A stretch of 62,925 nucleotides of DNA, counting the filler. It is 3 parts of 3 records of this genome, joined end to end, with 100 filler letters (N's around TTAATTAATTAA, not from the genome) between each part and the next. Parts side by side here need not be neighbours in the genome. Positions count along the whole stretch, not along the records: positions 47,091 to 62,925 come from DRR723986_31541; 2 more parts are not named here. The stretch is one strand, 5' to 3'. The position numbers and the translations under genes are program-made. Positions 3,492-62,925 of the stretch are shown here, one piece after another. The notes under the pieces are model-generated. The model ran no database searches. It was not told the origin of the DNA and saw only the letters and a list, made by a program, of their open reading frames with translations. Position 1 is the stretch's first letter, and every line of letters starts with the position of its first letter.

Positions 3492-3713
3492 ATGATTACT
3501 TCACTATTTTCCCAAAAAAACATTTGTGCTGCATTGGGCTTGGTAATGGCGCTCACCATTGTTTGGCAAGCTAAAGTAGAAACAAATATTGCAAAGCATA
3601 CTGCCCTTATTGACTATACTGAACCAACTTACAATACTGGCAAATCATCTAATTCGGACAATGAAAAAGTCTATGAATTCAAAAAAATAAGGACCGCTGA
3701 TGCAGTCCTCTGA
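3492..3713 (+). CDS. Small hypothetical membrane-anchored/secreted protein
   Basis: 73 aa with an N-terminal hydrophobic helix; occupies intergenic space and is followed by a terminator. Confidence 0.55.
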   Translation: MITSLFSQKNICAALGLVMALTIVWQAKVETNIAKHTALIDYTEPTYNTGKSSNSDNEKVYEFKKIRTADAVL

Positions 3714-3780
3714 TAATCTTACTGGGTGAAATTCCCATAACGAATACTCGTAAGGGTAGATTTGGTTGATTGGTTAATCG

Positions 3781-3812
3781 AAAGAGGTGGGTGATAACCC
3801 ACCTTTTTGTTT
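3781..3812. terminator. Intrinsic terminator
   Basis: AGGTGGGT-gata-ACCCACCT followed by T-tract. Confidence 0.75.
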
Positions 3813-47090: not shown

Positions 47091-47116
47091 GTGACTGGCA
47101 TCATTGCGGATAATCA
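47091..47116 (-). repeat. Partial copy of dispersed element (copy C)
   Basis: GTGACTGGCATCATTGCGGATAATCA; CTGGCATCATTGCGGATAATCA is identical to 22334-22355. Confidence 0.75.
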
Positions 47117-47153
47117 TAATTTTAATTTACCTTTATTCTTTATTTCAACACAA

Positions 47154-47498
47154 ATGAAAAAACAGCTGTCATTCCTAGTAATTTCCCTGAGTTGGGTGAT
47201 CTGGTTTATAGCTGTTTTCGCATTTCCTGTCTCAACTACCTCTACCCATACAGACTTCTCCCACGATTCTGTATCCAATCATATACAGCTTAGTGCTAAT
47301 CCATTAAGCGCAGGTATTGACATACTTAAAATTCCCGAATTTAAAGTAGACTGGAGCTTAAACTACAAGTTAAATTCCGATTACAAATTTGAATTAATCA
47401 GTCCATACAAGGCTTATTTATCGCCTTCATTTTTCAAAAAGTCACTTCCACTTTTCGACGTCAAAGACACTTTTATACATTTTTTCTACACTTGGTAA
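47154..47498 (+). CDS. Hypothetical protein with N-terminal hydrophobic segment
   Basis: ATG at 47154 (MKKQLSFLV...), signal/TM helix, ends HFFYTW. Confidence 0.6.
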   Translation: MKKQLSFLVISLSWVIWFIAVFAFPVSTTSTHTDFSHDSVSNHIQLSANPLSAGIDILKIPEFKVDWSLNYKLNSDYKFELISPYKAYLSPSFFKKSLPLFDVKDTFIHFFYTW

Positions 47499-47565
47499 AA
47501 TAACATAGAATCCAGTTCAGCGATGCTGAATCGCATAAAATTCTATTCATTTTAACCAATTTCCT

Positions 47566-48060
47566 ATGATCTCAATAGATCCAGTTACACTCGCTGTGAC
47601 TTCATTTGCTATGGTGGCTACTGCTTCACCATTTGTATATTACAGTTATAAAATCAAAAAGTTAAACTCAGCTAATCTCGCCTCATTTGAGGAGTTTGCT
47701 AGCGCTAATAACTCCTTCCCTACACAGCATGAACGTTGGAGAAATCATTACCATCTCGGCTTAGATATTCAACATAAAAAGTTGATATATCACAGATTTG
47801 GAAGCTATCCTGAGCAAAGCATGGTGGACCTCAAAGAGGTAAACAAAGTAAGTATTCAAGAGAAAAGTCGCATGGTAAAGGTAGGTAAGGAGAAGCGTCA
47901 TATTCTTGAATACCTTGCCTTGCAATTTCATTTTAAGGACTCAAATCATTCTCCGAAAACAATAGAAATGTATGATGGAGAGCTATTTACTGATGTTGCT
48001 GGAGAACGTGGAATTGCCGAAAAATGGCAAAAAATACTTGAAAAACAGCTAAAGGATTAA
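47566..48060 (+). CDS. Hypothetical membrane-anchored protein
   Basis: 164 aa with an N-terminal TM helix and a soluble beta-rich domain. Confidence 0.7.
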   Translation: MISIDPVTLAVTSFAMVATASPFVYYSYKIKKLNSANLASFEEFASANNSFPTQHERWRNHYHLGLDIQHKKLIYHRFGSYPEQSMVDLKEVNKVSIQEKSRMVKVGKEKRHILEYLALQFHFKDSNHSPKTIEMYDGELFTDVAGERGIAEKWQKILEKQLKD

Positions 48061-48127
48061 TCCTTTTAATCCTTAAAAAATGGTGTCAAATGACTCTAAA
48101 ATATCATAAATGATTCAATTGATTATG

Positions 48128-48158
48128 CAAGACCCGGTTAGCTAACTGGGTCTTTTTT
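48128..48158 (+). terminator. Intrinsic terminator
   Basis: AAGACCCGGTTAGCTAACTGGGTCTTTTTT. Confidence 0.8.
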
Positions 48159-48234
48159 ATTAATCTGCTTTCCGTTTTATAACTCAAAAATCGATAATTT
48201 GTAAATCTTAAACATTCCAGTTTTTAATCCAATT

Positions 48235-48669
48235 ATGTCAGATACCCCTATTCATAAAGAGTATTCCAACGGAGAAGTTACCATCACTTGGGAACCACAT
48301 AAATGCATTCATTCTAAAAATTGTGTCAAAGGCCTCCCTTCTGTATTTGATTTTGAAAAAAGACCTTGGGTAAAAGCAGATGGAGCAAGTACGGAGGAAA
48401 TTGTAAAGCAAATAGATAAATGCCCAAGTGGTGCACTTGGCTACTATTTCAAAGAAGAAAAAGAAACAAGCTCAGGAGATGTGATGTCTGAGCAATTGGT
48501 GGAAGTAATGCCTAACGGTCCTTTGATGGTCTATGGAAACCTGAAGGTGAAGCTCCTTAATGGACATATCAAAAACCAAAGTAAGGTCTCAGCTTTTTGC
48601 AGATGTGGTTCCAGTCAAAACAAACCTTTCTGTGATGGCACACATAAGAAAATTAATTTCCAAGGATAA
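48235..48669 (+). CDS. Divergent 4Fe-4S (Fer4_19/YjdI-like) + CDGSH iron-sulfur protein
   Basis: CIHSKNC...RPW...CPSGAL; FCRCGSSQNKPFCDGTH. Confidence 0.9.
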   Translation: MSDTPIHKEYSNGEVTITWEPHKCIHSKNCVKGLPSVFDFEKRPWVKADGASTEEIVKQIDKCPSGALGYYFKEEKETSSGDVMSEQLVEVMPNGPLMVYGNLKVKLLNGHIKNQSKVSAFCRCGSSQNKPFCDGTHKKINFQG

Positions 48670-48680
48670 AGGCAGTATAG

Positions 48681-49241
48681 ATGCGTAAAGTACTTGTTCT
48701 TTTTGCCCACCCTAAATTCGAGCATTCCGAGGTAAATCAAGCGTTAATTCAAGCTATTTCAGGAATTGAAAACATTGAAATTCGAGATTTATACGAACTA
48801 TATCCTGATTTCAATATTTCCATTCAAGCTGAGCAAGAAGCACTTTTTGAGGCTGAGGTAGTCATTTGGCATCATCCTATTTATTGGTATTCCTGTCCTC
48901 CGCTCATGAAGCAGTGGATAGATCTGGTGTTGGAGTTTGGCTGGGCGTATGGACCAGGAGGTATTTATCTCAAAGGAAAATACATCGCAAATGCCATCAC
49001 TTCAGGTGGATCTCAGGAAGCATATCAATACGATGGAAGAAATAAGTATAAAATTGAAGACTTTCTAAGGCCATTTGAGCAAACTGCAAGATTGTGTAAC
49101 ATGACTTATTTACCTCCTTTCCAAGTGGCTGGAACTCATAAAATCTCCGCCCTTGATCTCAAGGAAAAAGCAAATTCCTATCGGGAATTTCTCCTAGAAC
49201 TTCGAGACGCAGCTGACCTCTCTTACCTTAAAAATCTTTAA
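48681..49241 (+). CDS. KefF/KefG-like NAD(P)H-dependent oxidoreductase
   Basis: FAHP, DLYELYPDF, HPIYWYSCP, WID.V...GWAYG; upstream of the Kef antiporter. Confidence 0.9.
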   Translation: MRKVLVLFAHPKFEHSEVNQALIQAISGIENIEIRDLYELYPDFNISIQAEQEALFEAEVVIWHHPIYWYSCPPLMKQWIDLVLEFGWAYGPGGIYLKGKYIANAITSGGSQEAYQYDGRNKYKIEDFLRPFEQTARLCNMTYLPPFQVAGTHKISALDLKEKANSYREFLLELRDAADLSYLKNL

Positions 49242-49252
49242 TATCTAAACTC

Positions 49253-51151
49253 ATGAATGGATTCTTGGTAAATGCCATCCTATATATTATTGCTGCGATT
49301 ATCTGTGTACCTGTTGCCAAAAAACTTGGAATGGGCTCGGTGCTTGGATATTTGATTGCAGGAATCCTGATCGGCCCCTACTTGCTTGGCTTTATTACCA
49401 ATGAAGGCCAAGGCCAAGATATCATGCATGCCACAGAGTTTGGAGTGGTAATGATGCTATTTCTGATAGGTCTGGAATTAGAGCCCAAGAATCTTTGGAA
49501 AATGCGTCAGTTGATTCTAAAAGTCGGGTTGAGTCAAGTGCTGATTACCTCTGCTTTGGTATTTGGAATAGGAATTCTATTGCAAGTCCAATGGCAGATC
49601 TCCCTCGCGATTGGACTTTCAATGGCACTTTCATCCACCGCTATTGTGCTGCAATCTCTCAAAGAAAAAAATCAAATGAACGGTCCAATCGGGAAGCTTT
49701 CCTTTGGTGTGCTTTTGATGCAGGATATCGCTGTCATCCCAATTTTAGCAATCTTACCATTACTGATAGTCGGTGACCCTATTCCAGCATCCAATGCTTC
49801 AGAGATGCATGGATTGATTGATAGCTTACCCGGTTGGGCTCAAACTTTGTCTATTTTTGGTGCGATTGGAATTGTAGTTCTTCTTGGTCAATTCGGATTT
49901 GGCCCATTGCTAAATTATGTAGCTAAAAGTAGACTTCGCGAATTATTCACAGCATCCGCCTTATTGATCGTAGTAGGAATTTCCTTTTTGATGGAGCTTG
50001 TGGGACTAAGCCCTGCCTTGGGAGCATTTTTGGCGGGAGTTATCCTAGCCAATTCGCCATACCGACACGCGCTAGAATCCGACTTAGAGCCGTTCAAAGG
50101 ATTGCTTTTAGGCCTATTTTTTATGGCTGTTGGATCTACGATCAATTTCAGTTTGATATTCAATAATGCTACCACCGTCATTTCTTTGACCTTAGGAATA
50201 ATTGTTCTGAAAACAATCATCTTGCTAATCATAGGAAAGTCAAAAAAACTTAGACCAGCTGATAATCTGAGTTTTGCAATTGGCCTTTCGCAAGTCGGAG
50301 AATTCTCATTTGTAACATATGCTTTCGCACTTCAGTTGGGGATATTCGATCAGTCCATTTCCGATACACTGATGGCTGTCACCGCATTGAGCATGACTAT
50401 CACTCCTATTCTGATGGTTATTCTCGACAAAGTCATCCTTCCTACTTTAAATAGAAAAGATCAAGTGATTGAAAAAGAAATGGATCGCATCGACGAGCAC
50501 AACAAGGTGATACTAGTAGGATTTGGTCATTTCGGGTCCACTCTCGGAAGATTTCTAAGGGCGAATGGTGTGGAGGCAACCATTCTGGATGCAGACCCTG
50601 ACCGCGTAGAGTACCTTCGCAAAATGGGGTTCAAAGTATATTTTGGCGATGGCACCCGTGCAGATCTTTTGCTTTCAGCAGGAGTCATGGATGCATCAAT
50701 ATTGATTTCAGCACTTGACAACACGGAATATAGTATCAAACTGGTAGAACTTTGCAAAGAGGAATTTTCACATTTGGAAGTTATGATCAGAGCAAAAAAC
50801 CGATATGATGCTTTTGAACTCATGGAAATGGGGGTGAAAAATATCTACCGTGAACACTTAGATACTTCTATCAAAATGGGAGAAGACGTATTGAAAAAGC
50901 TTGGTTTCCGTGCTCATACAGTTCATCGTTTGGCAAAACAATTCCGGGATTACGATGAAGGTGCTTTGAAGGTATTGGTGAACTTCAAAGACAACAGGGA
51001 TGAGTATATCACCAAAAGTAGACAGCAAATAGAAATGCAGGAAAGTCTATTAAATGGTGAATTGATGAGAAAATTCTCAGTGAACGACCATACTTGGGAT
51101 AGTGACTCTATCAAGGAAGCAGTAAACTCAGACGTAAAAACTTCGAAGTAA
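49253..51151 (+). CDS. Glutathione-regulated K+ efflux antiporter (KefB/KefC, CPA2)
   Basis: EFGVVMMLFLIGLE, LSSTAI, QD, LEPFKGLLLGLFF, GEF, KTN domain GFGHFG. Confidence 0.93.
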   Translation: MNGFLVNAILYIIAAIICVPVAKKLGMGSVLGYLIAGILIGPYLLGFITNEGQGQDIMHATEFGVVMMLFLIGLELEPKNLWKMRQLILKVGLSQVLITSALVFGIGILLQVQWQISLAIGLSMALSSTAIVLQSLKEKNQMNGPIGKLSFGVLLMQDIAVIPILAILPLLIVGDPIPASNASEMHGLIDSLPGWAQTLSIFGAIGIVVLLGQFGFGPLLNYVAKSRLRELFTASALLIVVGISFLMELVGLSPALGAFLAGVILANSPYRHALESDLEPFKGLLLGLFFMAVGSTINFSLIFNNATTVISLTLGIIVLKTIILLIIGKSKKLRPADNLSFAIGLSQVGEFSFVTYAFALQLGIFDQSISDTLMAVTALSMTITPILMVILDKVILPTLNRKDQVIEKEMDRIDEHNKVILVGFGHFGSTLGRFLRANGVEATILDADPDRVEYLRKMGFKVYFGDGTRADLLLSAGVMDASILISALDNTEYSIKLVELCKEEFSHLEVMIRAKNRYDAFELMEMGVKNIYREHLDTSIKMGEDVLKKLGFRAHTVHRLAKQFRDYDEGALKVLVNFKDNRDEYITKSRQQIEMQESLLNGELMRKFSVNDHTWDSDSIKEAVNSDVKTSK

Positions 51152-51432
51152 GAAGATCTTGTAGAGCGTATCCCATTCATTTTTATCCATCAATCCAACA
51201 AACATCTTGTATTCGTAGATGTTAAGAATAGAAATCATTTTCTAACCCGCCAACAGATTGAGTGTGAAAATTAACAAAGCTATAAATTGTTAAATCTATA
51301 GTTTGAAGTAGCGAATATTCAGTTTATCACGTTATTTCAAATACTGGGAACTTAGACACACGATTTCTGTTTTAAGTGACAGTGATTAGAATTCCATATA
51401 GCTATTAACTTTTCACTTCTATACACATCACT

Positions 51433-51681
51433 ATGAACCAACACTTTACACTACTAAAAAAAGCCATCGAAGTATTTCACTCCTATGGTATCACTTTGAC
51501 AGGTCAGAAAAAAAATGCGGACTTTGTACAGCAATTGAACATGGATCAAGTCTTTATTAATGGTCTGATTTTCGAATTGGAATATCAGCTTCAGGTGATT
51601 TTTCAGGATGAAAAACTAGGTACTGTACATACGCCGAAGGATTTGATAGCGTTACTTGTAAACATCCCCCAAGACAATTGA
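51433..51681 (+). CDS. Acyl-carrier-protein-like protein lacking the conserved serine
   Basis: ADFVQQLNMDQVFINGLIFELE..IFQDE...HTPKDLI aligns with the ACP pattern ASF..DLGADSLD.VEL...LE...I.DE....T. Confidence 0.65.
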   Translation: MNQHFTLLKKAIEVFHSYGITLTGQKKNADFVQQLNMDQVFINGLIFELEYQLQVIFQDEKLGTVHTPKDLIALLVNIPQDN

Positions 51682-51708
51682 TGGGTGTTTTGAAAACTAA
51701 ACCAACTT

Positions 51709-51745
51709 AAAAGGGCTGACTTCCATAGGAATCATCCCTTTTTTT
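51709..51745. terminator. Bidirectional terminator
   Basis: AAAAGGG...TTCC-ata-GGAA...CCCTTTTTTT. Confidence 0.65.
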
Positions 51746-51773
51746 GTTCTGAGTAATGAAACTGTAAACAACC

Positions 51774-52244
51774 TTACTTCTCTACTCTAGTATAAATAAT
51801 CCCTAAGGAGCTTGCATAAAGTGGCATAATGGTATGGAGCTCTTTATTCTTATTTCTGAGTTGAAATTCTCTCGATAGATTTCCTTGATCCTGCAAGCTG
51901 AGCCCTTCTTTGTCCGAAAACATCGTTCCACCCATGTTAATGTAATGTTCTGAAATAGAAACTGTTATTTTATTTTCAACAATTTGGTAGTTGCCATTAT
52001 AATATTCCAGAAAGCCTAACACACTCCCAGTCTCCATATCCTTGGCAAAAACCTCAGCATACACCTCACCATCTAACTTGAATTCAATGGAATAAATAAT
52101 ATCGTAGGACTGATCATCAGTCTTGTATTCAATGACTTTTTGCCAATGACTCTGGGTCAATACCTCGGGATTGACATCATCATTATCCTTGCAACTGATA
52201 ATAAACAAAACAATAGCGAGTAGAGGAAGCAGGTTTGTTTTCAT
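51774..52244 (-). CDS. Hypothetical lipoprotein
   Basis: MKTNLLPLLAIVLFIISC lipobox followed by KDNDD. Confidence 0.75.
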   Translation of the reverse strand: MKTNLLPLLAIVLFIISCKDNDDVNPEVLTQSHWQKVIEYKTDDQSYDIIYSIEFKLDGEVYAEVFAKDMETGSVLGFLEYYNGNYQIVENKITVSISEHYINMGGTMFSDKEGLSLQDQGNLSREFQLRNKNKELHTIMPLYASSLGIIYTRVEK

Positions 52245-52420
52245 ATACAAAGGTCGGTTTATTTGAAAAGTCCACTGATTAAATAAAGAAAATCAGGATA
52301 TACGGGATATAACTATTACGTGACTTAGCTGCATAGCGCTACAAAAAATCTACTCTCAAATTTATACTGGCATTCTAACTAAGCAGAGTAACTTGCACCT
52401 ACAAACCCGACAAACTCAAA

Positions 52421-52636
52421 ATGGAAAAGAAAACTCTGTCTGGAACCATCCGAAAAAACATTCAAATCGACAGCGAAGTCACCATTGTACAAAAACACCA
52501 TCAAAGATCTGGTGAACTCACCGAAGGCTTCGTCAAGCGAATTTTAACCTCCTCTCCAACACATCACCATGGGATCAAAGTAATGCTGGATACCGGAGAA
52601 GTGGGAAGAGTAGTAGACGTCTTTGTCGAAGACTAA
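52421..52636 (+). CDS. YwbE family protein
   Basis: V.IVQK..QRSG.LTEG.V..ILT.S..H.HGIKV.L..G.VGRV. Confidence 0.85.
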   Translation: MEKKTLSGTIRKNIQIDSEVTIVQKHHQRSGELTEGFVKRILTSSPTHHHGIKVMLDTGEVGRVVDVFVED

Positions 52637-53101
52637 CTAGCCCGTTGGACGGTGTTTCTTTTTTAATCCATTCAAGAAATTCCTGAGAATTTGGTCTTTA
52701 CAAGGTCTGTATTGGGATTGGCTAGGTTTTCTGAAAAAGGCACTCAACTCGTGTGGACTGATATGCATACCTACGGAAGAGAGAATTTCAAGCACATCGT
52801 CTTCCTTCAAATTCAGGGCTATTCGAAGTTTCCTGAAAATGATATTGTTATTTAAGGACTTTTCAGGCTTTGGGTCTTCACCATCCTTTTTCCCTCTCTT
52901 GTCAATAATAAAACCGTTCAAAAAAGCCGCCAGGTCTTTATCGATAATAGCTTGGAAATACTCCTCGTCATCATTTTTCAAAAAATTTGCAACCTCTTCC
53001 CGTTTTAGATCCAATCCTCCGGCTTTAAAAATGGCTACCATTTCAGGGTCTTTGTAATTGAAAATATACCGAATGGTCCGTAAAATATCTGAATTTGTCA
53101 T
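52637..53101 (-). CDS. DUF1456 (YehS) family protein
   Basis: MTNSDILR.IRY, FLNGFI..KRG, NN.I.RKLRIAL, ELSAFFRK, C.DQ.LRNFL.GL; TACCTTTG promoter element upstream. Confidence 0.88.
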   Translation of the reverse strand: MTNSDILRTIRYIFNYKDPEMVAIFKAGGLDLKREEVANFLKNDDEEYFQAIIDKDLAAFLNGFIIDKRGKKDGEDPKPEKSLNNNIIFRKLRIALNLKEDDVLEILSSVGMHISPHELSAFFRKPSQSQYRPCKDQILRNFLNGLKKKHRPTG

Positions 53102-53425
53102 GAATGCTCTTTGCTGAGTTTAACTCAAAGGTAAGGATGAATTAGGAATTGCTGCCTGGAAATTAGCAATGAAATGTTATTCAAAAATTCAGTCAGATAA
53201 AATCTAGTATGACTTAAAAGCCACAAATTGGGATGTTTTCTGGTTCAAGTTTCATGATTAGACCCCACAATAATGAAGTCTTCTGACTTCTATTTCAGTT
53301 TCATACAGCAATCTGAAGACTGCAATAAAATAGGCACAAGTCTGATGACTTGCGCCAATCAATCAATACAGGTTTGTAGGATTGTCATGTGCCAAGCTGG
53401 ATTGAATTAGATATCGAACGCCTGA

Positions 53426-53863
53426 TCAACTCTGAGGAGCAGCTTCAGCAAAAGAAATCATCCAATTAATTCCAAATCGATCAGTAAGCATCCCGAAATA
53501 ATCTCCCCAGAAAGTACTTGCCATAGGCATTGTCACCTTTCCATCGGCGGAAAGCTTCGTAAAAAAGTCATCAGCTTTCTCCTTAGAATCAGTGTTAATA
53601 GAAATAGAGAAATTATTACCAACAATTAAAGGACCACCATGCCCTCCTGTATCAGATCCCATCAAAATACATTCTTTGCTTATAGGCAAACTGATATGCA
53701 TGATTTGGTTTCTAAACTCATCTCCAATAGGATAAGTGGGGTCAGCGGGCATGTCAGAAAATCTTCCCACATGGGCAAATTCTCCTCCGAAAACAGAGCG
53801 ATAAAAATTGAAGGCATTCTCACAGTTTCCTTCGAAGGTCAGATAAGTGTTTAAAGTAGTCAT
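53426..53863 (-). CDS. VOC/PhnB family protein
   Basis: YLTFEGNCE.AF.FY, IMH, LMGSD, TFWG..FGMLTDRFGINWM. Confidence 0.9.
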   Translation of the reverse strand: MTTLNTYLTFEGNCENAFNFYRSVFGGEFAHVGRFSDMPADPTYPIGDEFRNQIMHISLPISKECILMGSDTGGHGGPLIVGNNFSISINTDSKEKADDFFTKLSADGKVTMPMASTFWGDYFGMLTDRFGINWMISFAEAAPQS

Positions 53864-53915
53864 AGTGTTTAGGGTTATAATGGATAAAATTTTAATGCTG
53901 TTTGGCTGAAGGTTA

Positions 53916-54230
53916 TCAGCACTGTTTTTGAATTAATTCGTCAATGTATATATCAATTTGGGATAAGAAAGTAGTATCAGTTCGGTAATCTGCCTGCACT
54001 TCATCAGCCGCGGAAAAACAAACAGGAGAGGTAAATTTGGCTAAGCTTATCTCGTTGTTTTTACTATCAACGCTCGGATATTGTAAGCCCTTCATTCTAA
54101 CCCTGATTCTTTCGATCAAATATTCATCAGTAGGAAGTGGACCAATACTAGCATTGCTAAGAGCAAGGACAAGTTTCTGTAGAATACGGCGTTCAAATTC
54201 CATAGCTGTAGATTTTGCTGTAGAGGCCAT
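53916..54230 (-). CDS. Hypothetical protein
   Basis: 104-aa ATG ORF co-oriented between MATE and VOC genes; contains FTSPVCF. Confidence 0.5.
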   Translation of the reverse strand: MASTAKSTAMEFERRILQKLVLALSNASIGPLPTDEYLIERIRVRMKGLQYPSVDSKNNEISLAKFTSPVCFSAADEVQADYRTDTTFLSQIDIYIDELIQKQC

Positions 54231-54265
54231 TTAATTTAACAAAATCACCTGACTTGACCCTGCTT

Positions 54266-55645
54266 CTAAACCTCCTTTAGCTTCCATTTGCCTTTTCTAA
54301 AGAAATAAAGGGAAACTACAGAATGGAAACTATGGCTAAATGCGATGGAAATGAAAATCCCCAAATGAGCCAATCCTAAAGGAAAAGCCAACACATAAGC
54401 TAGCGGAATTTCTATAAACCAAAGTACACCTATGTTGATCCAAGCAGGTGTTTTGGTATCTCCTGCCCCATTGAAAGCCTGTGTCAGCACCATACCAACA
54501 GCGAAGAAAACGTAACCAAGCGCGACCACCCAAAGTCCTTGAGCGGCTACTGACTGCACTTCGGGAATAGAGGTGAAGAATCCAGCCAATTGCTGATTAA
54601 AAAGCAGATAAATGCCTGTGACTGATGCCATGAAAATCACCGTGTATCTGGTGGTTAACCAAACAGCTTTCTCAGCACGATCTGGTTGCTTGGCACCCAA
54701 GTTTTGACCCACCAACATAGATGCAGCTCCAGATAAACCCCAAGCAGGCAACAGGGTAAAAATCAGTATTCTAAATGCTATAGTAAATCCAGCTAAAGAG
54801 GCTGATCCAAACTCAGCATTCATACGAGTTAGCGCAATCCATGACACGGAATCAATCAGAAATTGTCCCATTCCGCCTATAGCGATTTCCATTATTCTCT
54901 TGATGATTTCCCAGGAGATCACAATGTTTTCCTTTAGGATTTTCAGCTTGTGCTTTCCGTTGAATAGATGATACAACTGATAAACTACACCAACTCCTCT
55001 ACCAAACGTCGTCGCAATTGCTGCTCCTTCTAAGCCAAAACCTTCAATATTTCCAACTCCAAAAATCAGAATTGGATCCAAAATCATATTCAGTCCATTA
55101 GCAATCCAAAGTGATCGCATCGCATGATGTGCTTGGCCTGCCCCTCGAAATGCTCCATTCAGAAGAAATAAGAGCATAATGGCAGTATTTCCAGCAAAAA
55201 TAATTCGTGTATAATTGACTCCGGTTTCTATCACTTTTGGCTCTGCTCCCATTAAGCCTAGAATATCCGGAGCGAAGATCCATCCCAGAATTCCAAGTAC
55301 AATAGAAATAGCTCCACCAACAATTAGCAATTGGAAAGCTGCAGCTCCAGCCTCGAAGTATTCTTTTTCACCAAATCTTCTGGAAATCAAAGCAGTCGCT
55401 GCCATGCTTATGCCAAATCCCATTGCATAAACCAACACCACAACGGACTCAGTCAATCCAACCGTAGCGATAGCATGTTCACCCAGTTTGGCTACAAAAA
55501 AGATATCCACTACTGCAAAAGCTGACTCCATCATCATCTCTAGGATCATGGGAATAGCAAGTACAAAAATTGCCGTTTTAAGGGAAAGACTGGTGAAATC
55601 CTGCTCTTTGCCACGCAGGGCATCTTTTATTAATTGCCAGGTCAT
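54266..55645 (-). CDS. MATE family efflux transporter
   Basis: LAIP..LEM, VDIFFV, RGAG, N.ILDP.LIFG, GAAIAT, LVGQNLGA, GAGDT. Confidence 0.93.
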   Translation of the reverse strand: MTWQLIKDALRGKEQDFTSLSLKTAIFVLAIPMILEMMMESAFAVVDIFFVAKLGEHAIATVGLTESVVVLVYAMGFGISMAATALISRRFGEKEYFEAGAAAFQLLIVGGAISIVLGILGWIFAPDILGLMGAEPKVIETGVNYTRIIFAGNTAIMLLFLLNGAFRGAGQAHHAMRSLWIANGLNMILDPILIFGVGNIEGFGLEGAAIATTFGRGVGVVYQLYHLFNGKHKLKILKENIVISWEIIKRIMEIAIGGMGQFLIDSVSWIALTRMNAEFGSASLAGFTIAFRILIFTLLPAWGLSGAASMLVGQNLGAKQPDRAEKAVWLTTRYTVIFMASVTGIYLLFNQQLAGFFTSIPEVQSVAAQGLWVVALGYVFFAVGMVLTQAFNGAGDTKTPAWINIGVLWFIEIPLAYVLAFPLGLAHLGIFISIAFSHSFHSVVSLYFFRKGKWKLKEV

Positions 55646-55872
55646 TTGAAAATTGGAAAAATAATGAGGGGCGAAATAAAAGGAAATTTCCGCTGATCGA
55701 AAAACTCTAAGAGTTATTAAAGAATTATCAAACGCATATCAGACAGTTTTTGTCGCTTTTAGCCATGGCTTCCCGTTTTAAAATCAACTGCTCTATCCCA
55801 TAATTTGAGTATCTGCTTTTCTGCAAGCAGAGAGACCAAAGCACTATAAGTATTGGTCAACACTATCGCTAA

Positions 55873-55972
55873 GGTCGCTTCAGCCTGTCCGCCAGTGCGG
55901 AAGTCACCCATCTTCGGTCACCTAACAGAATGAGCAAAGGGATTTTGGCTAAAGCCATCTTTTGGGGTATCG
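55873..55972 (-). ncRNA. Putative structured RNA, divergent copy of dispersed element (copy D)
   Basis: GGTCGCTTCAGCCTGTCCGCCAGTGCGGAAGTCA and AGCAAAG align with 44444-44511; located immediately 3' of a minus-strand stop codon. Confidence 0.5.
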
Positions 55973-55979
55973 ATATTTA

Positions 55980-56693
55980 TCAATGAACCGACTTCCTATC
56001 CACGATCACATGTGCATTTGGGTGAAGCCAGAGAACTGAAGCGGGAAGGTCTGTCCGGATTTTTCCTTCCATTAATAAATCCAAAGCCTGCTTTTTGCCC
56101 TTTCCAGTGATAAAGAGAATGACCATTTTCGAAGCCATAATATTTCCCACTCCCATTGTCATTCCTTGAGTTAAGGGAATTCCAACTTTCTCAATCATTC
56201 CACTCGCTAAAGTAACCGGATGCAAATTGGCTACATGGCAATCTGGTTGAAGATAATCTCCAGGCTCATTTAACGCGATGTGACCATTTATACCTATCCC
56301 CAGAATACAAATATCTATGCCAGTGAATTCAACAATTTTATCCTGGATCCTATCGCATTCTGACTCCGGGTCATCTGTTTCCACATCAAATGAGAAGTAT
56401 CTATCATCCTTTATCCCCAATTTTTTGACCAACTTCTCCTGAATATCATATTCGGAAGTAAATGTGGAATCCTTGGGCAATCCCACCCACTCATCGAGTT
56501 TGATCACATTCATCCAATCGAAAAAGCCAGGTGAATCGAGTTGTTTTTCCACCATCAATTCATACAATCCAGCGGGGGAATTTCCACTTGCTGCGCAAAA
56601 AAGCAAATCAGGATTGATCTCAACCTCTGCATGAACGAGCTCAGCTCCTAGCTGAGACATTTCTTGGTAGTTTTTGCAATTATGTAGCTTCAT
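55980..56693 (-). CDS. Glucosamine/galactosamine-6-phosphate isomerase family protein
   Basis: ASGNSP, LDEWVGL, LGIGINGHIALNEP, TMGVG.I, PASVL.LH. Confidence 0.88.
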   Translation of the reverse strand: MKLHNCKNYQEMSQLGAELVHAEVEINPDLLFCAASGNSPAGLYELMVEKQLDSPGFFDWMNVIKLDEWVGLPKDSTFTSEYDIQEKLVKKLGIKDDRYFSFDVETDDPESECDRIQDKIVEFTGIDICILGIGINGHIALNEPGDYLQPDCHVANLHPVTLASGMIEKVGIPLTQGMTMGVGNIMASKMVILFITGKGKKQALDLLMEGKIRTDLPASVLWLHPNAHVIVDRKSVH

Positions 56694-56780
56694 GATCTAG
56701 GTTTAGTATGTGAAAATGAATGTAAGTGATGACTAAAATAAGTTGATTTTCAATTGAGGTTATCCTGATAGTTCAAAATT

Positions 56781-58169
56781 TCAACCTATTCCCGTTCCGA
56801 GCCAATCACCTCGATGTCTGATCGTCCGTATTTTCCAATGGCCGGTTTTGAAATAAATAAAGGCAACCAATGCTGCTATAAAATTGGAAATTGGGAAAGC
56901 CCACCAAATCCCCTCAAAAGCCAGCGTTGTTTTCTGAGAAAGCACAAATGCTGTAGGAAAGCGCACGATCCACAAACTAAAAATGGAAATCAATAAGGAA
57001 GCTTGGGTAAATCTTGCTCCGTTGAAGAGTCCATTCAGAACTTGGTTGACACCAAGCAAACCAAAGCTAGGTGCCATAATTCTTATAAAAGTTGCTCCGT
57101 CTCTGATCACTTCAGGATCATTGGGGACGAAGAATGCCGTTAGATTCTCCGCAAAAACAAATAATAAAAGGCCAATTCCAGTCAGGCCAAAGAAGGCGAC
57201 TTTTACGCTTAGATTTCCAATACTTTCGGCTTTCTTAATTTTAGAAGCTCCAATATTCTGACCTACCATGGTCGTCGTCGCCATGGCTAATCCTTGCGCC
57301 GGAACAATTACCAAACTCAAAATCCTTGCTCCAATTCCATAAGCAGCAACTACCCCACTACCAAAACTCGTAACCAACATCACCAATACCGTCAAGACTG
57401 CGGAGCGAGAGGATTGCTCCAAACTGGCTGGAATCCCCAATTCAAACATACGCTTGATCCACTGGAAGTCTGGTTTCATGTCAGCAAGTCGGATTTTAAT
57501 CCCTTTTTTACCACGAAACAGAATCACAATTCCTACGAGAGCAGATAAGCCCTGCGTGATAATACTCGCCACAGCTGCACCAGCTACTCCATAGCCCTCA
57601 ATGGATCCAAACCCAAAAATGAAAAGTGGATCCAAAACCAGATTTAGCAGAACGGTACCCAAAACGATATACATCGGCATCAACACATTTCCAATGCCTC
57701 GCATCAGCGACTGGAAAGTGAAAAACATAAAGAGAAAAACGAACCCAAAGGATGAAACCTGGAAATACTTAACCGAATCATCCAGCGTTTCTGGCCCTGC
57801 ACCAACCAAATTCATTAATGGTGAAGCACCAACATAGCCTAAAACTGCCAGCATGGCAGACACAAAGAAGATCACTAAAACGGTTTGCGAAGCACTAAAA
57901 TCTATCATCCGCTGATCATCGGCTCCTTTATATTGGGAAACGATAACTGTTCCCGCCAAGGTAAGTCCAGCGCCAAGAGATAGCACCAGAAATAATATCG
58001 GAAAACTAATACTCACTGCAGCTACAGCGTTTGCGCCTAATCTCCCCAGCCAAAAAGTATCAATTAGCTGATAGGCAGTCTGCAGAATATTTGCCATAAT
58101 AATCGGCCAAGCCAAGGTAAAAAGGCTCCGTATTAAATTCCCTTGGGACAAATCTGACTTTTTACTCAT
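56781..58169 (-). CDS. MATE family efflux transporter
   Basis: LAWP, YQLIDTFW.G.LG, MRG.G, N.VLDP.FIFG, GAAVA, VGQNIGA. Confidence 0.93.
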   Translation of the reverse strand: MSKKSDLSQGNLIRSLFTLAWPIIMANILQTAYQLIDTFWLGRLGANAVAAVSISFPILFLVLSLGAGLTLAGTVIVSQYKGADDQRMIDFSASQTVLVIFFVSAMLAVLGYVGASPLMNLVGAGPETLDDSVKYFQVSSFGFVFLFMFFTFQSLMRGIGNVLMPMYIVLGTVLLNLVLDPLFIFGFGSIEGYGVAGAAVASIITQGLSALVGIVILFRGKKGIKIRLADMKPDFQWIKRMFELGIPASLEQSSRSAVLTVLVMLVTSFGSGVVAAYGIGARILSLVIVPAQGLAMATTTMVGQNIGASKIKKAESIGNLSVKVAFFGLTGIGLLLFVFAENLTAFFVPNDPEVIRDGATFIRIMAPSFGLLGVNQVLNGLFNGARFTQASLLISIFSLWIVRFPTAFVLSQKTTLAFEGIWWAFPISNFIAALVAFIYFKTGHWKIRTIRHRGDWLGTGIG

Positions 58170-58468
58170 GAATCCAAAATCTAGCTTTTCACTTGATATC
58201 CTAAGATGCTAGTAAAATTCTGGAATCAGAAATTTGAACCATCAGAAGAATGTAAATCCTTATAAAACACCCAGCTTCATTAGACTTAAGGTCACGTAAA
58301 ACTTAAACGCCTAGAAATCCATGAGGCTCTTCACAAATCTTATAGGACAAATCCCCCTTAAAAATTTCACACATACGAGGATTCCCAACAAAGCCAATAC
58401 CTATGAAACTATATTCCTTTTATCCCTTCAGGCTTCGCTCATGTTAGAATTGACACCTTCTGCAAAGG

Positions 58469-58503
58469 TCTTGATTCTAGCGTCTTGCTTCTTGCTACTC
58501 CTA
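58469..58503. repeat. Half-copy of heptamer array 3' of kynA
   Basis: tcttgat tctagcg tcttgct tcttgct; its reverse complement AGACGCTAGAATCAAG nearly matches 28670-28685. Confidence 0.6.
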
Positions 58504-58507
58504 AAAT

Positions 58508-59467
58508 CTACTCTTCCCCAAAAATCTCCTTAACTACCCAACCTTTGCCCCAGTCTTCTCTTTCCTGCTCAGTCCAAAGTTCCGGGTAGAAAATCACCTT
58601 CTGGAAGCGCGGAGGAAGGTATTTCTGCCAGTTGGTTCCACCTGTCGCAGCAATATCCACAGGATCTCTCTGTAGAAATCTAACTGCAGACTTGTAATGC
58701 GCCAGTGGCCAAAAAACATTTGCCTTCAGATCAAACTGCTTCATCTCTTCCGTCAATTCAGCTGAAGGATCAGGAAGATCTATGTACTTCTGCCATAGAT
58801 TTTTGCGTCTATAGGCATCGATGAGATCCATTAATTTCTTGCTGTACTTCGCTTCAAAATTCTTTAGTGTCAGCGTTTTCTCTCCAGTCGCCAATTCAAC
58901 TGCCCCCTGCTGCCAATACAGATTTTCAAAAATCTCATCCGTCGGCGTATGGAAATCAGGATCAGTTCGCTTATCCAATGCAACGAGGTTAAATGCATCC
59001 GCAGCCATCAATTCTATCTCCCGATATTGTGCACTTTGGAACCCACTGGCAGGAAGCAGGGACATTCGGAATTTGAGAAATTGCTCCTGCTCCATCCCTT
59101 TCCACATCATAGCAAAAGAACCGATCAACTGATCAAAGTACATATTGATACGCTCCAGTCTTGCCTTAAAAAATTGCTCTGTAATCGGCTGTAAATCTGA
59201 AATTTGCTCCATTTCAGAAATAATTAACTTAAAATAAAGCTCCGTAATCTGATGATAAATAATGAAAATCTTTTCGTCTTTGAAAGAAGTCTTCGGCTGC
59301 TGCAGAGAAAGCAACACATCCAAGTTGATATAATCCCAATAGGCCAAATAATCCGCATACTGCAAACCTTCCAAGTAAGAAAGCATATCCTGTCCGGAAG
59401 CTTTAAATTTCTGCTGAAGCAGTTCAATTTTATCTAATATCTTGGGGTCAAATTGGGACTCTTCCAT
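58508..59467 (-). CDS. kynA: Tryptophan 2,3-dioxygenase
   Basis: Y.DYI.LD.LL.LQ, FIIYHQITELYFK, PASGFQSAQYR, TGGT. Confidence 0.9.
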   Translation of the reverse strand: MEESQFDPKILDKIELLQQKFKASGQDMLSYLEGLQYADYLAYWDYINLDVLLSLQQPKTSFKDEKIFIIYHQITELYFKLIISEMEQISDLQPITEQFFKARLERINMYFDQLIGSFAMMWKGMEQEQFLKFRMSLLPASGFQSAQYREIELMAADAFNLVALDKRTDPDFHTPTDEIFENLYWQQGAVELATGEKTLTLKNFEAKYSKKLMDLIDAYRRKNLWQKYIDLPDPSAELTEEMKQFDLKANVFWPLAHYKSAVRFLQRDPVDIAATGGTNWQKYLPPRFQKVIFYPELWTEQEREDWGKGWVVKEIFGEE

Positions 59468-59586
59468 AAGTACTTTTAGGACAAAAAGGTAGTATTTTCG
59501 TGAGCGATCCGTTTAATTAGGATCAGCTCTGGATTTTTAAAATCCCGACAAAAGTCACAGATTCATTCTATAAAACCAAAAAAACC

Positions 59587-60792
59587 ATGGAGTCAATTGA
59601 AATCCGAAAGTCATTAAAGCAAGATACCTTCGAGGGCGTTGATTTTTTAGACCTTGATGATTTGCTTACTGATGAGCATAAATTGATCAGATCTTCCATC
59701 CGGGATTTTGTCAAAAAGGAGATCTCTCCTTACATAGAAAACTGGGCTCAGAAGGCTCACTTCCCTAGCGAAATCGTCAAGAAATTCGGTGACGTGGGAG
59801 CTTTTGGACCGCAGATTCCTGAGCAATATGGAGGTGGTGGCTTGGACTATATTGCCTATGGCTTAATCATGCAGGAAATCGAACGGGGTGACTCAGGTAT
59901 GCGCTCGACGGCCTCTGTGCAGGGTTCGTTGGTAATGTATCCTATTTATAAATTCGGTTCGGAAGAACAGCGAAACAAATACTTGCCAAAACTAGCTTCT
60001 GGCGAAATGCTGGGCTGCTTCGGTCTTACTGAGCCAGATCACGGCTCCAACCCATCTGGCATGGTGACCAACTTCAAAGATATGGGCGATCATTACTTGC
60101 TGAATGGTGCCAAAATGTGGATTTCAAATTCTCCAGAAGCGGATATCGCAGTGGTCTGGGCAAAAAATGAAGAAGGCCGAATTCATGGTTTGATCGTGGA
60201 GCGGGGAATGGAAGGATTCACCACGCCGGAAACTCATGGCAAATGGTCGCTTAGGGCTTCCTGCACCGGAGAATTGGTTTTTGATAATGTGAAAGTGCCA
60301 AAGGAAAATCTTCTTCCTGGCAAATCAGGTTTGGGTGCACCGCTGATGTGCTTGGATTCTGCCCGATTTGGAATCGCCTGGGGAGCGATCGGCGCTGCAA
60401 TGGACTGTTACGAGTCTGCGAGAAAGTACGCCGCTGAGCGCATCCAATTCGGCAAACCCATTGCTGGTTTTCAACTGGTGCAGAAGAAACTCTCTGAAAT
60501 GCTTACCGAAATCACCAAAGCTCAGTTTTTAGCCTGGAAAGTCGGCAAGATGATGAATGAGGGAAAAGCCAAAACTGTCCATATCTCCATGGCAAAACGA
60601 AACAATGTGGAAATGGCGCTCAATATCGCCCGAGAAGCCAGACAAATCCATGGAGGAATGGGCATCACAGGAGAATATCCGATTATGCGCCATATGATGA
60701 ACCTGGAATCGGTGATTACTTACGAAGGAACGCATGATATTCACTTGCTGATTTTGGGTCAGGAGATTACTGGGATTCCGGCTTTTGTGTGA
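59587..60792 (+). CDS. gcdH: Glutaryl-CoA dehydrogenase
   Basis: YGLI.QEIERGDSG.RS.ASVQ.SLVMYPI, GCFGLTEPDHGSNP, ARFGIAWG, NLESV.TYEGTHDIH. Confidence 0.9.
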   Translation: MESIEIRKSLKQDTFEGVDFLDLDDLLTDEHKLIRSSIRDFVKKEISPYIENWAQKAHFPSEIVKKFGDVGAFGPQIPEQYGGGGLDYIAYGLIMQEIERGDSGMRSTASVQGSLVMYPIYKFGSEEQRNKYLPKLASGEMLGCFGLTEPDHGSNPSGMVTNFKDMGDHYLLNGAKMWISNSPEADIAVVWAKNEEGRIHGLIVERGMEGFTTPETHGKWSLRASCTGELVFDNVKVPKENLLPGKSGLGAPLMCLDSARFGIAWGAIGAAMDCYESARKYAAERIQFGKPIAGFQLVQKKLSEMLTEITKAQFLAWKVGKMMNEGKAKTVHISMAKRNNVEMALNIAREARQIHGGMGITGEYPIMRHMMNLESVITYEGTHDIHLLILGQEITGIPAFV

Positions 60793-60800
60793 GGTTTTTA

Positions 60801-60839
60801 ACCGCGGAGGGCACGGGAGGATACGCGGAGGGCGCAGAG
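60801..60839. repeat. Short GC-rich direct repeat (CGCGGAGGGC x2)
   Basis: CGCGGAGGGC at 60803-60812 and 60824-60833, directly after the gcdH stop. Confidence 0.55.
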
Positions 60840-60889
60840 TAGAGATTTAATTTTAAAATAAGAGTTCTTGAAAGGAAAGATCTATGAAA

Positions 60890-60935
60890 AATGTACTCAA
60901 CTAGTTGCGAATAGCGACACGTTATGGCTCAGATT
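60890..60935 (+). mobile_element. Putative array-proximal (attI-like) recombination site
   Basis: Palindrome CAACTAGTTG (60898-60907), then AGCGACAC|GTTATGGCTCA; the box is complementary to 62057-62071. Confidence 0.5.
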
Positions 60936-60948
60936 AAAACCACACTAA

Positions 60949-62070
60949 GTGAACTTAAGAAATAGAATACTAAACTTTGAACACTGGATATCTTCTGACT
61001 TCAAACTTGACGAACCAGTTATATATCAGCGAGAACTAATGAAACTGTTCTCGGAAAACAAAGAAGCTTTTGCTTATTATAGAAATTGGTTGTTTACTTT
61101 ACTACTAAACAGTGACGAGCAAGAGGCACTTAGCGAATTCAAGAATATTTTAGATTTTAAAGTTGGTACTTCAAAACACGACCAACTATTAAAGCATTTT
61201 CTGGAGAACAACTCATCTGAAATATTCTCTCAAAAAAGATTTAACACCTTTGAAATTGCATTGCAAGCGCCGAATTCTAATTTAAACCAAAACACTTGTT
61301 TTCTATATCAACAATATTACGAAATAGAAATTCTTTTTATGGTTCTATACTCATTCATTACTCTAAACGAAAGTGATACAATTGAAACGGACTTAAACAA
61401 ATTTAAAGACAGAAGTGGGAGATTAAAAAAAGGTGTTTTGATAGACAATCTAAAATCCAAACTAAGACCTTACCCTCTAACTCATAAATTATTTGAAGCT
61501 GCATACAATCCAAAAATTCGAAATATTATTGGACACAACAACTATAAAATTGTAGTAGATGCAATTGAGTCGTTAGAAGATAGAAATATTAAACTGAGTA
61601 AACTTGAAGTTTTTAAGTCGATTTACTCAATACAAAGCCTCAATAACTACTTACTAAATTATTTTTCAAGTAAAAGCATTCTAAATGATGATTTACAAAA
61701 TGCAGGTATATTAGGAATGGCTTTTGGTTTAGAAAAGGAACGTCCTGTCCTCAGTATATTTCAACTAAATAATTTCTATCATTTAGGTGATTTTCAATGG
61801 GCAGATAAAATAATTTTCAGCATACGCAATAACGAATTAGAGACAGACTTTGGATTTCAGTCTCCTATGATTGGACCATACTCAGTGGAGTTGGATCAAA
61901 TATGGTTTAATCCTTTAAGAGAAATAAAAAAGCTAAGAATTTATTTAACCCCAATAGTTCCAAGGGATGAAGAAGATGATTTTATCACCTTAGATGTTGG
62001 AGAATTTGTTGTTTCAGAAGTCGGAAAACCAATAGATTTAGAGTATGAAATAAATAAATATGAGCCATAA
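60949..62070 (+). CDS. Cassette-borne hypothetical protein with HEPN-like RxxxxH motif
   Basis: 373-aa AT-rich ORF with IRNIIGHNNY; stop codon lies inside the TGAGCCATAAC box. Confidence 0.65.
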   Translation: MNLRNRILNFEHWISSDFKLDEPVIYQRELMKLFSENKEAFAYYRNWLFTLLLNSDEQEALSEFKNILDFKVGTSKHDQLLKHFLENNSSEIFSQKRFNTFEIALQAPNSNLNQNTCFLYQQYYEIEILFMVLYSFITLNESDTIETDLNKFKDRSGRLKKGVLIDNLKSKLRPYPLTHKLFEAAYNPKIRNIIGHNNYKIVVDAIESLEDRNIKLSKLEVFKSIYSIQSLNNYLLNYFSSKSILNDDLQNAGILGMAFGLEKERPVLSIFQLNNFYHLGDFQWADKIIFSIRNNELETDFGFQSPMIGPYSVELDQIWFNPLREIKKLRIYLTPIVPRDEEDDFITLDVGEFVVSEVGKPIDLEYEINKYEP

Positions 62071-62194
62071 CAGGCGTTTAGCTCAATGGCGGGGACTTGG
62101 TTAATTGAACATTCTACTCGCATCAACTTTGGTGGTGAATTAAAAGTTTTGTGCTCCGATATCCGCCACTGCGTCAAGCGACAAAACGTTTGCA
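62061..62194 (+). mobile_element. attC-like long imperfect palindrome (cassette boundary)
   Basis: Starts ...CCATAAC and ends AC|GTT; arms CGTTTAGCTCAATGGCGG / CCGCCACTGCGTCAAGCG; inner AACTTT/AAAGTT stem. Confidence 0.65.
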
Positions 62195-62236
62195 ACAAGC
62201 TGGAAAAACCACAGCAATTAATTTTAAAATAAAATT

Positions 62237-62509
62237 ATGATAAAAAATGAACAGAAATATTTAGCATGGATTGAAAAAAATGGTGTTGGAAAAAATGATT
62301 ATGTTGCCTCTTCAACCAAATCCTATATTTCATATTTGAACACTGTTTCTAAACTTATTGGAGAAGATATATCTGAAAAAAATCTTTTTAACGAAAATTG
62401 TGTAAATGAAATAGCCGATAAACTGAATGATTTAAGAAGTCCCAAATCAATTTCAAATTATAAATCTGCTTTGAAACAATATGCTCAAATGGTAGAAAAA
62501 AGATTTTAA
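62237..62509 (+). CDS. Small helical protein, possibly integrase N-terminal/SAM-like domain
   Basis: 90 aa; STKSYISYL and SPKSISNYKSAL resemble the two 'T..Y...L' helices of core-binding domains. Confidence 0.55.
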   Translation: MIKNEQKYLAWIEKNGVGKNDYVASSTKSYISYLNTVSKLIGEDISEKNLFNENCVNEIADKLNDLRSPKSISNYKSALKQYAQMVEKRF

Positions 62510-62513
62510 AGAA

Positions 62514-62876
62514 TTGAAAATTTTATACAAAATATCTTAAATAATCCTAAATCTACTATTAAGTTGTGGAGTCAAAGAAATGGAATTTGAAAAGTCTAAA
62601 TGGTATGAGAGATTTGACTGATTTTATGAATATCGAGAAAACATGGTTCAAGACTTAATGGAAAATCACCTTGTAATAGGAATGGAATTAAAAAAAGTCG
62701 TTGAATTGTTAGGAGAACCTGAAAATTATCAAAACAAAAAAGATAACGAAATTACTTATGAGATAATGGTTGATTATGGTTAAAACATTGACCCAATGGA
62801 AGGAAAAGAATTGTATATAGAATTTGACAAAGATTCAACTGTAATTGATTTTAGATTAGAACATTGGGGTAAGTAA
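62514..62876 (+). pseudogene. Decayed SmpA/BamE-like lipoprotein gene
   Basis: One frame reads MKILYKIS*IILNLLLSCGVKEMEFEKSKWYERFD*FYEYRENMVQDL...GMELKKVVELLGEP...YG*NIDP...HWGK with stops at 62538, 62619 and 62781. Confidence 0.7.
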
Positions 62877-62883
62877 AAAAAAG

Positions 62884-62925
62884 CCAGTTGCCAATACCGT
62901 ATATAATTTATTGCTAGTTCTAGCC
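62884..62925 (+). mobile_element. Start of the next attC-like site (truncated by window end)
   Basis: CCAGTTGCCAATACCG right after the pseudogene stop; partly complementary to GTTTGCAACAAGCTGG at 62188-62203. Confidence 0.5.

Follow-up and report, generated by a model that had tools for sequence, protein, structure and literature searches.

What kind of element lies behind the acyl-CoA dehydrogenase gene near the end of the Bacteroidota DNA analysed here (a stretch of 62,925 nt, referred to below as the window, of which positions 47,091 to 62,925 come from DRR723986_31541), and which enzyme could have built it? A previous sequence-only reading of the locus interpreted the region downstream of this gene as an array of integron-like gene cassettes with cassette-specific complementary end boxes, handled by a tyrosine recombinase encoded elsewhere. 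The window was compared with its nearest available genome (G001) and with 80 recombinase loci from other Bacteroidota. As judged from the sequences, positions 60855-62925 very probably represent the head and the first two cassettes of an integrase-less array, which belongs to an integron-like system widespread in Bacteroidota. The window encodes no recombinase detectable by tblastn; polar arrays of the same kind stand behind a dedicated Xer/IntI-like tyrosine recombinase in G001 and in 36 of the 42 informative loci, as the sequence-only reading had anticipated.

Organization of the cassette array

The cassettes and sites of the array comprise the following features, all on the + strand (ORF, open reading frame):

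60921-62071, + strand: cassette 1 module, from GTT to AAC
60921-60935, + strand: start box of cassette 1, GTTATGGCTCAGATT
60949-62070, + strand: intact ORF of cassette 1, 373 aa, with a GTG start codon
62057-62071, + strand: end box of cassette 1, AATATGAGCCATAAC
62069-62190, + strand: attC-like site 1, AAC...GTT, 122 nt (match to covariance model R1 at 62061-62198)
62188-62895, + strand: cassette 2, decaying, with a degenerate end box
62188-62203, + strand: start box of cassette 2, opening with GTTTGCAACAAGCTGG
62237-62509, + strand: intact ORF of cassette 2, 90 aa
62580-62876, + strand: pseudogene of cassette 2, with in-frame stops at 62619-62621 and 62781-62783
62884-62895, + strand: end box of cassette 2, CCAGTTGCCAAT, with AAT as its final triplet
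62893-62925, + strand: probable third site, of which only the start precedes the window end; AAT replaces AAC

Most of the earlier description of this region withstood re-examination. The letters and coordinates of the two cassette 1 boxes (60921-60935 and 62057-62071) were reread and are correct, the boxes are complementary at 14 of 15 positions, and the TAA of the 373-aa ORF falls within the end box. The DNA indeed becomes richer in AT, with a G+C fraction of 0.42-0.50 within the dehydrogenase gene and of 0.25-0.36 downstream, and a second, different box begins at 62188. Two points required amendment, of which the second, the weight of the inverted repeat, is taken up in the next section. 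The element following cassette 1 had been described as an imperfect palindrome of ~130 nt; its outer arms of ~20 bp do pair, but the rest of the 122-nt element is not palindromic. The end of cassette 2 mirrors its start box, as proposed, but only with gaps, and its final triplet is AAT, not AAC. In the probable third site, ACCGTATATAAT (62896-62907) agrees by eye at 11 of 12 positions with ACCGTATATAAG, the 5' part of one site type (row L118:20506), and 62884-62925 received no call from the covariance model, even with filters off.

Pairing of the cassette-specific boxes

A covariance model (CM) was built from an alignment of 61 sites chosen for the presence of AAC, GTT and a stem. Removal of the 11 among 127 CM matches that had no AAC or GTT at the expected offset left 116 sites, and 79 cassettes were bounded by two CM matches. 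When box positions 4-15 (12 positions) were compared, the start box matched the end box of its own cassette at 8.8 of 12 positions (n=79), against 4.2 for the end boxes of other cassettes (n=6162) and 4.5 for the two boxes flanking a single site (n=116). The box therefore pairs with the far end of its own cassette, as in a circle closed at GTT. The same is seen in a diverged pair of homologous cassettes (L142 and G001:C3), in which the boxes differ and each pairs with its own partner. By itself, the 14/15 inverted repeat of cassette 1 does not exceed chance in AT-rich DNA, in which three other pairs of 14-15 nt were found at 93%; it is meaningful because of its position (GTT directly after an attI-like head and AAC before the site) together with the family-wide box statistics.

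Canonical integron boxes are RYYYAAC and GTTRRRY. Among the 116 sites, seven fit the 7-nt R'' box, five fit R' and none fits both. The consensus found here, GTT-RKSSGYMA, extends over ~15 nt of pairing and agrees with that of integrons only in the triplets, and the suspicion that the boxes are longer than, and unlike, the canonical ones was thus well founded. Position 11 of the start box is an A in 77 of the 79 cassettes and faces either C (43 times) or A (17 times). On the opposite strand, the A-C mismatch would read as a T-G pair; together with the borders at GTT, it gives an indirect hint of recombination through the folded bottom strand with exchange at G|TT. In cassette 1 the usual mismatch is replaced.

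Structure and distribution of the attC-like sites

Site 1 (62061-62198) is the sole CM match in the window and scores 90.7 bits on the + strand versus 17.5 on the - strand. AAC and GTT are invariant in all 61 aligned sites, changes on both sides occur in each of the 18 basal stem pairs (covariation), and 88 % of the stem cells are paired, as compared to 31-39 % with slid partners. Site 1 is built from a basal stem of ~20 bp, in which there are fixed mismatches, and from a loop of ~72 nt (62095-62166). Across 100 sites, the loop exhibits direct-repeat periodicities of 18-19 nt (z 8-10) and 37-38 nt (z 11-18), and no conserved loop hairpin was detected by RNAalifold. The single-stranded DNA fold of 62050-62205 is no more stable than that of shuffled sequences on either strand (z -0.46 and -0.14), and an Rfam scan of three array loci yielded only chance-level matches, all below the gathering scores. 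The sites fall into two length classes, with 120-127 nt in 100 and 177-194 nt in 12 of the 116.

The expectation that the region 62061-62194 would have homologues elsewhere was also borne out. Copies of the site 1 body that are 83-91 % identical adjoin unrelated genes in at least 15 other genomes, and their BLAST borders lie at 62066-62070 and 62189-62195.

A dedicated recombinase at the head of complete arrays

In related Bacteroidota, arrays are headed by an Xer/IntI-like tyrosine recombinase of 437-455 aa that is co-oriented with the cassettes, and it is the candidate for the co-occurring enzyme that had been predicted from the window. In G001 (contig C5), the gene for the 437-aa enzyme stands behind radA. 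Next to it comes ...ACTAGTTGCGTATAGCGACTC|GTTAGCGGTCAGCTT, a sequence sharing 80 % identity with window positions 60879-60939; then come a gene, a mirror box with AAC, and a 124-nt AAC...GTT element. Contig C6 of this genome begins inside an array of the same build, and the genome as a whole contains 24 CM sites in several clusters and one recombinase of the array-linked family.

The association between sites and enzyme is strongly asymmetric. All 125 CM matches in the 80 recombinase loci are on the strand of the recombinase, and 124 are located downstream of it (293,855 nt searched), as opposed to one upstream (582,135 nt searched). The asymmetry is retained outside the training set, to which 71 of the 125 matches do not belong, 70 of them downstream. 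Where at least 1 kb of downstream sequence was available, a CM match was found in 36 of 42 loci and at least two matches in 27. In 38 of the 80 loci the contig ends within 1 kb after the recombinase gene, as repeats do to short-read assemblies. The family itself is widely distributed: 565 of 600 pattern matches in species-representative genomes were confirmed, in Cytophagales, Bacteroidales, Sphingobacteriales and some Flavobacteriales, with the closest named relatives in Algoriphagus.

The catalytic half of the enzyme has VchIntIA as its best PDB relative (2A3V, E 1e-38), followed by archaeal XerA (4A8E, 5HXY). The IntI-specific insertion is missing, since residues 333-360 (28 aa) of the G001 enzyme occupy the place of residues 180-245 (66 aa) of VchIntIA. 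The G001 recombinase scores 216.5 bits in two stretches against TIGR02249 (cut-off 265) and 208.7 bits against the archaeal XerA model NF040815 (cut-off 220). The N-terminal extension of ~160 aa is modelled as two alpha/beta modules (mean predicted local distance difference test score, pLDDT, of 79); it has no Pfam match at E<=10, and Foldseek returned nothing at E<=0.001. VIA-align gave Z scores of 6.8 (eIF1 and the N-domain of T4 UvsW), 6.1 (damage-recognition domain of XPB) and 4.4 (HARP domain of SMARCAL1). All of these are under the level that the tool regards as trustworthy, and a HARP-like fold was considered a lead only.

Two further Xer-like frames were noted in these genomes. A second, shorter Xer/IntI-like tyrosine recombinase (178 bits against TIGR02249) is carried by a mobile unit in G001:C19 (L009), G001:C6:1-90 and 3447-4107 (L025) and G001:C2:77-838 (L032). 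This unit sits immediately 3' of an attC-like AAC and is oriented away from the array, and an internal deletion has reduced one of its copies to a remnant. The beginning of the next ORF may resemble IS91-family transposases. In addition, an Xer-like frame of 338 aa, interrupted by a single in-frame TGA, occurs with equal score in G001:C2:674623-675441, G049:C11:228326-229144 and G103:C3:399260-400078; the TGA looks conserved rather than like a random break.

An attI-like head behind the dehydrogenase gene

The left part of the array and its chromosomal flank contain the following features:

59587-60792, + strand: acyl-CoA dehydrogenase gene of the glutaryl-CoA dehydrogenase type, chromosomal flank (Pfam Acyl-CoA_dh N, M and C domains)
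60855-60878, + strand: left junction, common to G090 and G049 and with no counterpart 3' of the same gene in G001
60879-60923, + strand: attI-like head, with a recombinase 3'-end remnant, palindrome, spacer and GTT junction
60879-60887, + strand: remnant of the last recombinase codons and stop, GATCTATGA, within the head
60894-60913, + strand: degenerate palindrome of the head
60921-60923, + strand: GTT junction of the head

The best NCBIfam match of the flanking gene is glutaryl-CoA dehydrogenase, at 290 bits versus a cut-off of 470. The homology of G001 to the window ends at 60854, and no array is present behind the same gene in that genome. For G001, G025 and G049:C28, the region 3' of the stop codon of the recombinase gene could be aligned with the head (60879-60923). 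The alignment takes in the final codons together with the stop, GATCTATGA in the window versus GATATATGA or GATATATAA, and the palindrome around AACTAGTT. The same recombinase-less head is found behind the same dehydrogenase gene in two other genomes: G090:C2 matches window positions 60562-60924 at 91 %, and G049:C10 matches 60630-60913 at 82 %. All six heads, three of them recombinase-linked (G001, G025, G049:C28) and three not (the window, G090, G049:C10), are alike up to GTT and diverge after it, and cassettes would presumably enter at this GTT.

Comparison of the region downstream of the dehydrogenase gene, which the sequence-only reading had singled out as informative, revealed that its content varies. 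The first cassette gene encodes 373 aa in the window and 249 aa in G090, and a third, different one is present in G049. In G090, the 249-aa gene is followed by a single eroded site (AAA...ATT, 41.6 bits) and then by a serine-hydrolase gene, which is the chromosomal neighbour in G001. Since each of these three loci has a first cassette of its own, the platform acquired cassettes once it was in place. Both G049 and G090 also possess a complete recombinase gene with a linked array elsewhere. The window array is thus read as a second docking platform, derived from a copy that lost the recombinase gene, later took cassettes and was served in trans.

Proposed mechanism of cassette exchange

Each unit begins with GTT and a ~12-nt cassette-specific box, followed by a short leader and an ORF, and ends with the mirror box and AAC, a site body of 120-127 nt (basal stem of ~20 bp, loop of ~72 nt) and the next GTT. 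Complete copies carry the recombinase at the head, with a palindromic attI after its stop codon. In the proposed mechanism, an excised cassette would form a circle whose site is completed when the start box pairs with the end box, as in integrons; exchange would take place at or next to GTT, and new cassettes would enter at attI. The copy in the window would have kept attI and ~9-25 nt of the recombinase 3' end as a second platform behind the dehydrogenase gene; with the recombinase gene lost, it could be served only in trans. The passage through a circle, the folding of single strands, the precise point of cleavage and the service in trans are what we infer.

Cassette contents and the borders of the mobile unit

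The cassette proteins match no Pfam, NCBIfam or PADLOC family. Homologues of the 373-aa protein form only 28 clusters in a large protein collection, and in the ESM Atlas only unnamed clusters were matched. Their distribution is patchy, including Belliella, a Sphingobacterium metagenome-assembled genome, a Cytophagales isolate, Myroides and Flavobacterium. The start codon of this ORF (60949-60951) is GTG in the window and ATG at the same place in the homologues from L147-L150. As regards cassette 2, an intact homologue of its pseudogene in G080 (L137) encodes a lipoprotein with a signal peptide, which the window copy does not have.

Cassette 1 could be followed into other contexts. Two metagenome contigs (L147 and L149) contain the module as 1151-1152 nt that are 82-88.5 % identical to the window. 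The homology begins at GTT and ends at AAC, and in both contigs the module is located behind the attC site of another cassette, not behind attI. Movement of cassettes with these borders is consistent with the action of a recombinase encoded elsewhere. In an all-against-all BLAST of 103 cassette interiors, this trio and one diverged pair were the only relationships found.

The site bodies that follow the cassette 1 copies are only 64 % alike, equal to the background of 61 +/- 7, a result not predicted by the simple integron model, which has attC move together with its gene. Either exchange occurs at both borders, or the bodies have been replaced by conversion. The uncoupling of site body and gene rests on one cassette, since cassette 1 alone was traceable among the 103. 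A tentative explanation, to which we give rather low odds, is that the mobile unit comprises only the GTT-box, the gene and the box-AAC, with the 120-127-nt site bodies serving as interchangeable platform pieces. Exchange could then occur at both the AAC and the GTT borders, for example by the use of either folded strand, and the N-terminal modules of the recombinase might read the periodic 18/37-nt loop repeats. If true, this would be an integron-like gene-capture device with a different enzyme architecture and a different cassette definition, in a phylum considered to have almost no integrons.

Weighing the interpretation

Several observations weigh against the reading of the window as part of an integrase-less, integron-like array. 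In addition to the mismatch of the site bodies described above, the window holds only one CM-verified site, the next having AAT for AAC and being truncated by the window end. The CM and the first stem statistics, including the pairing percentages, are partly circular, because AAC, GTT and a stem were the criteria by which the sites had been selected. Neither the box test nor the upstream/downstream asymmetry is affected by this selection. Six of the 42 informative recombinase loci have no CM match. The absence of a recombinase applies to the 62.9-kb window, and the presence of the enzyme in that strain is presumed. Finally, one genome (G103) has 32 CM matches at many loci and, at E<=1e-50, lacks any member of the array-linked recombinase family; its clusters may be orphaned, or a more distant enzyme may serve them.

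The alternative that survives best retains the system but places its activity in the past: the window array would be a fossil, built by the system, in which shuffling has ended, the recombinase gene has been lost and the sites are eroding. We consider this a serious possibility, with slightly less than an even chance. It accounts for the degenerate left arm of the head palindrome as compared with G001, G025 and G049, for the two in-frame stops and the gapped, AAT-ending box of cassette 2, for the AAA and ATT that replace AAC and GTT in the 41.6-bit site of G090, and for the replaced mismatch at box position 11 of cassette 1. However, site 1 is intact at 90.7 bits, ORF 1 has its full length, the differing first cassettes indicate uptake after the platform had formed, and a complete recombinase gene is available elsewhere in both G049 and G090.

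It is very improbable that the locus is an ordinary integron fragment, that is, a cluster of attC sites lacking integrases (CALIN), with a canonical IntI encoded elsewhere in the genome to act on its cassettes. The AAC/GTT triplets, the cassette logic, the sites of 120-127 nt and the polar arrays all fit integrons, and Bacteroidota are named among the phyla with integrons in PMC8618304 and in the preprint by Ghaly et al. On the other hand, no open frame in G001 reached the integron-integrase cut-off; the best was the co-oriented recombinase, with 123 + 99 bits in two pieces, which lacks the IntI insertion. The canonical 7-nt boxes, which no site combines, and the location of arrays behind this recombinase in 36 of 42 loci are also at odds with a canonical integrase, and the IntegronFinder 2.0 paper (PMC9024848) lists only In0 elements and one complete integron, that of Salinibacter ruber, for Bacteroidetes. 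Under the CALIN criterion (attC sites numbering at least two, with no nearby integrase), the window offers one CM-verified site and one degenerate site cut by the window end.

Least credible of all is the view that the palindromes are non-mobile intergenic repeats, such as terminators or repetitive extragenic palindromes (REP), with incidental box complementarity: although the sites do lie between co-oriented genes, the stop codon overlaps the end box and the window site folds no better than shuffles, this view is contradicted by the box test, the recombinase linkage and the module borders, because own-box pairing is far above the controls, the sites are nearly exclusive to the downstream side of one recombinase family, and the same module recurs in different contexts with GTT and AAC as its borders, to which the strict strand polarity of site 1 and the invariance of both triplets may be added.

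Relationship to known systems and significance

The arrays resemble chromosomal integrons, such as the Vibrio cholerae superintegron, and CALINs in many respects. These likewise contain co-oriented arrays of mostly small genes of obscure function, and every gene has an imperfect palindrome behind it, with AAC and GTT at its borders; the two ends of a cassette are complementary, as for a circle; the docking site is adjacent to a tyrosine recombinase, which in the present system has VchIntIA as its nearest solved relative; and one genome may hold several integrase-less clusters. In contrast to the integrases of chromosomal integrons, the recombinase described here has no IntI insertion, contains an extra N-terminal part of ~160 aa and is co-oriented with the cassettes. 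The boxes are ~15 nt long and follow GTT-RKSSGYMA rather than GTTRRRY, the site loop bears direct repeats (18-19 and 37-38 nt) and not a hairpin, and in the sole traceable cassette the gene and its site body are not passed on together. An integrase that reads in the same direction as the cassettes is also described for integrons of the Treponema group in Cury et al. 2016 (PMC4889954). The enzymes of the Treponema group are IntI by the definition used in IntegronFinder, whereas those of the present family are not.

A second point of comparison is provided by XerA and XerC/D acting on dif-like sites. The catalytic part of the array recombinase scores near archaeal XerA (208.7 bits with NF040815), and the attI palindrome resembles two arms around AACTAGTT. 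The Xer/dif systems differ in having a single 28-bp chromosome-resolution site, whereas arrays of structured 120-190-nt sites and cassettes are found here, together with an added N-terminal domain.

Bacteroidota are a clade in which no integrons had been found before according to Darracq et al., and surveys locate integrons almost exclusively outside this phylum. In Smyshlyaev et al. 2021, integrons are defined by IntI with its extra domain, which is held to be necessary for attC recombination. Searches of the full-text literature outside subscription journals and supplements turned up no account of a cassette system with a non-IntI enzyme in Bacteroidota. A cassette system that follows the logic of integrons with a simpler, Xer-like enzyme appears to be present in hundreds of Bacteroidota species, given the 565 confirmed stretches among 600 candidates. 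If this is true, gene capture by folded sites would not need the IntI insertion, and current integron finders would under-count the cassette pools of marine, soil and gut Bacteroidota. What the window contributes to this picture is a second platform that lacks an integrase, occupies a fixed position in the chromosome and shows turnover of its cassettes, together with a single cassette that can be traced and that sets the borders at GTT and AAC.

Other features of the dehydrogenase locus

A G+C-rich stretch follows the stop codon of the dehydrogenase gene directly (60791-60841). It contains two CGCGGAGGGC-like half-repeats and has many dispersed copies in the genus, the corresponding query positions 232-282 being matched in G014, G029, G030, G036, G049, G095, G106 and G145. 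Possible identities are a REP-like element and a terminator.

In G001 (G001:C1:188561-189402; L002 ~660-1500), and also in G036, G049:C10, G092, G101, G108, G116, G125 and G141, the acyl-CoA dehydrogenase gene has its final 100-160 nt present twice, and the two copies are separated by an insert of 0.8-1.3 kb. The insert in G001 contains a 205-aa ORF that belongs to no known family. The duplication looks like a hot spot of site-specific integration that is separate from the cassette array.

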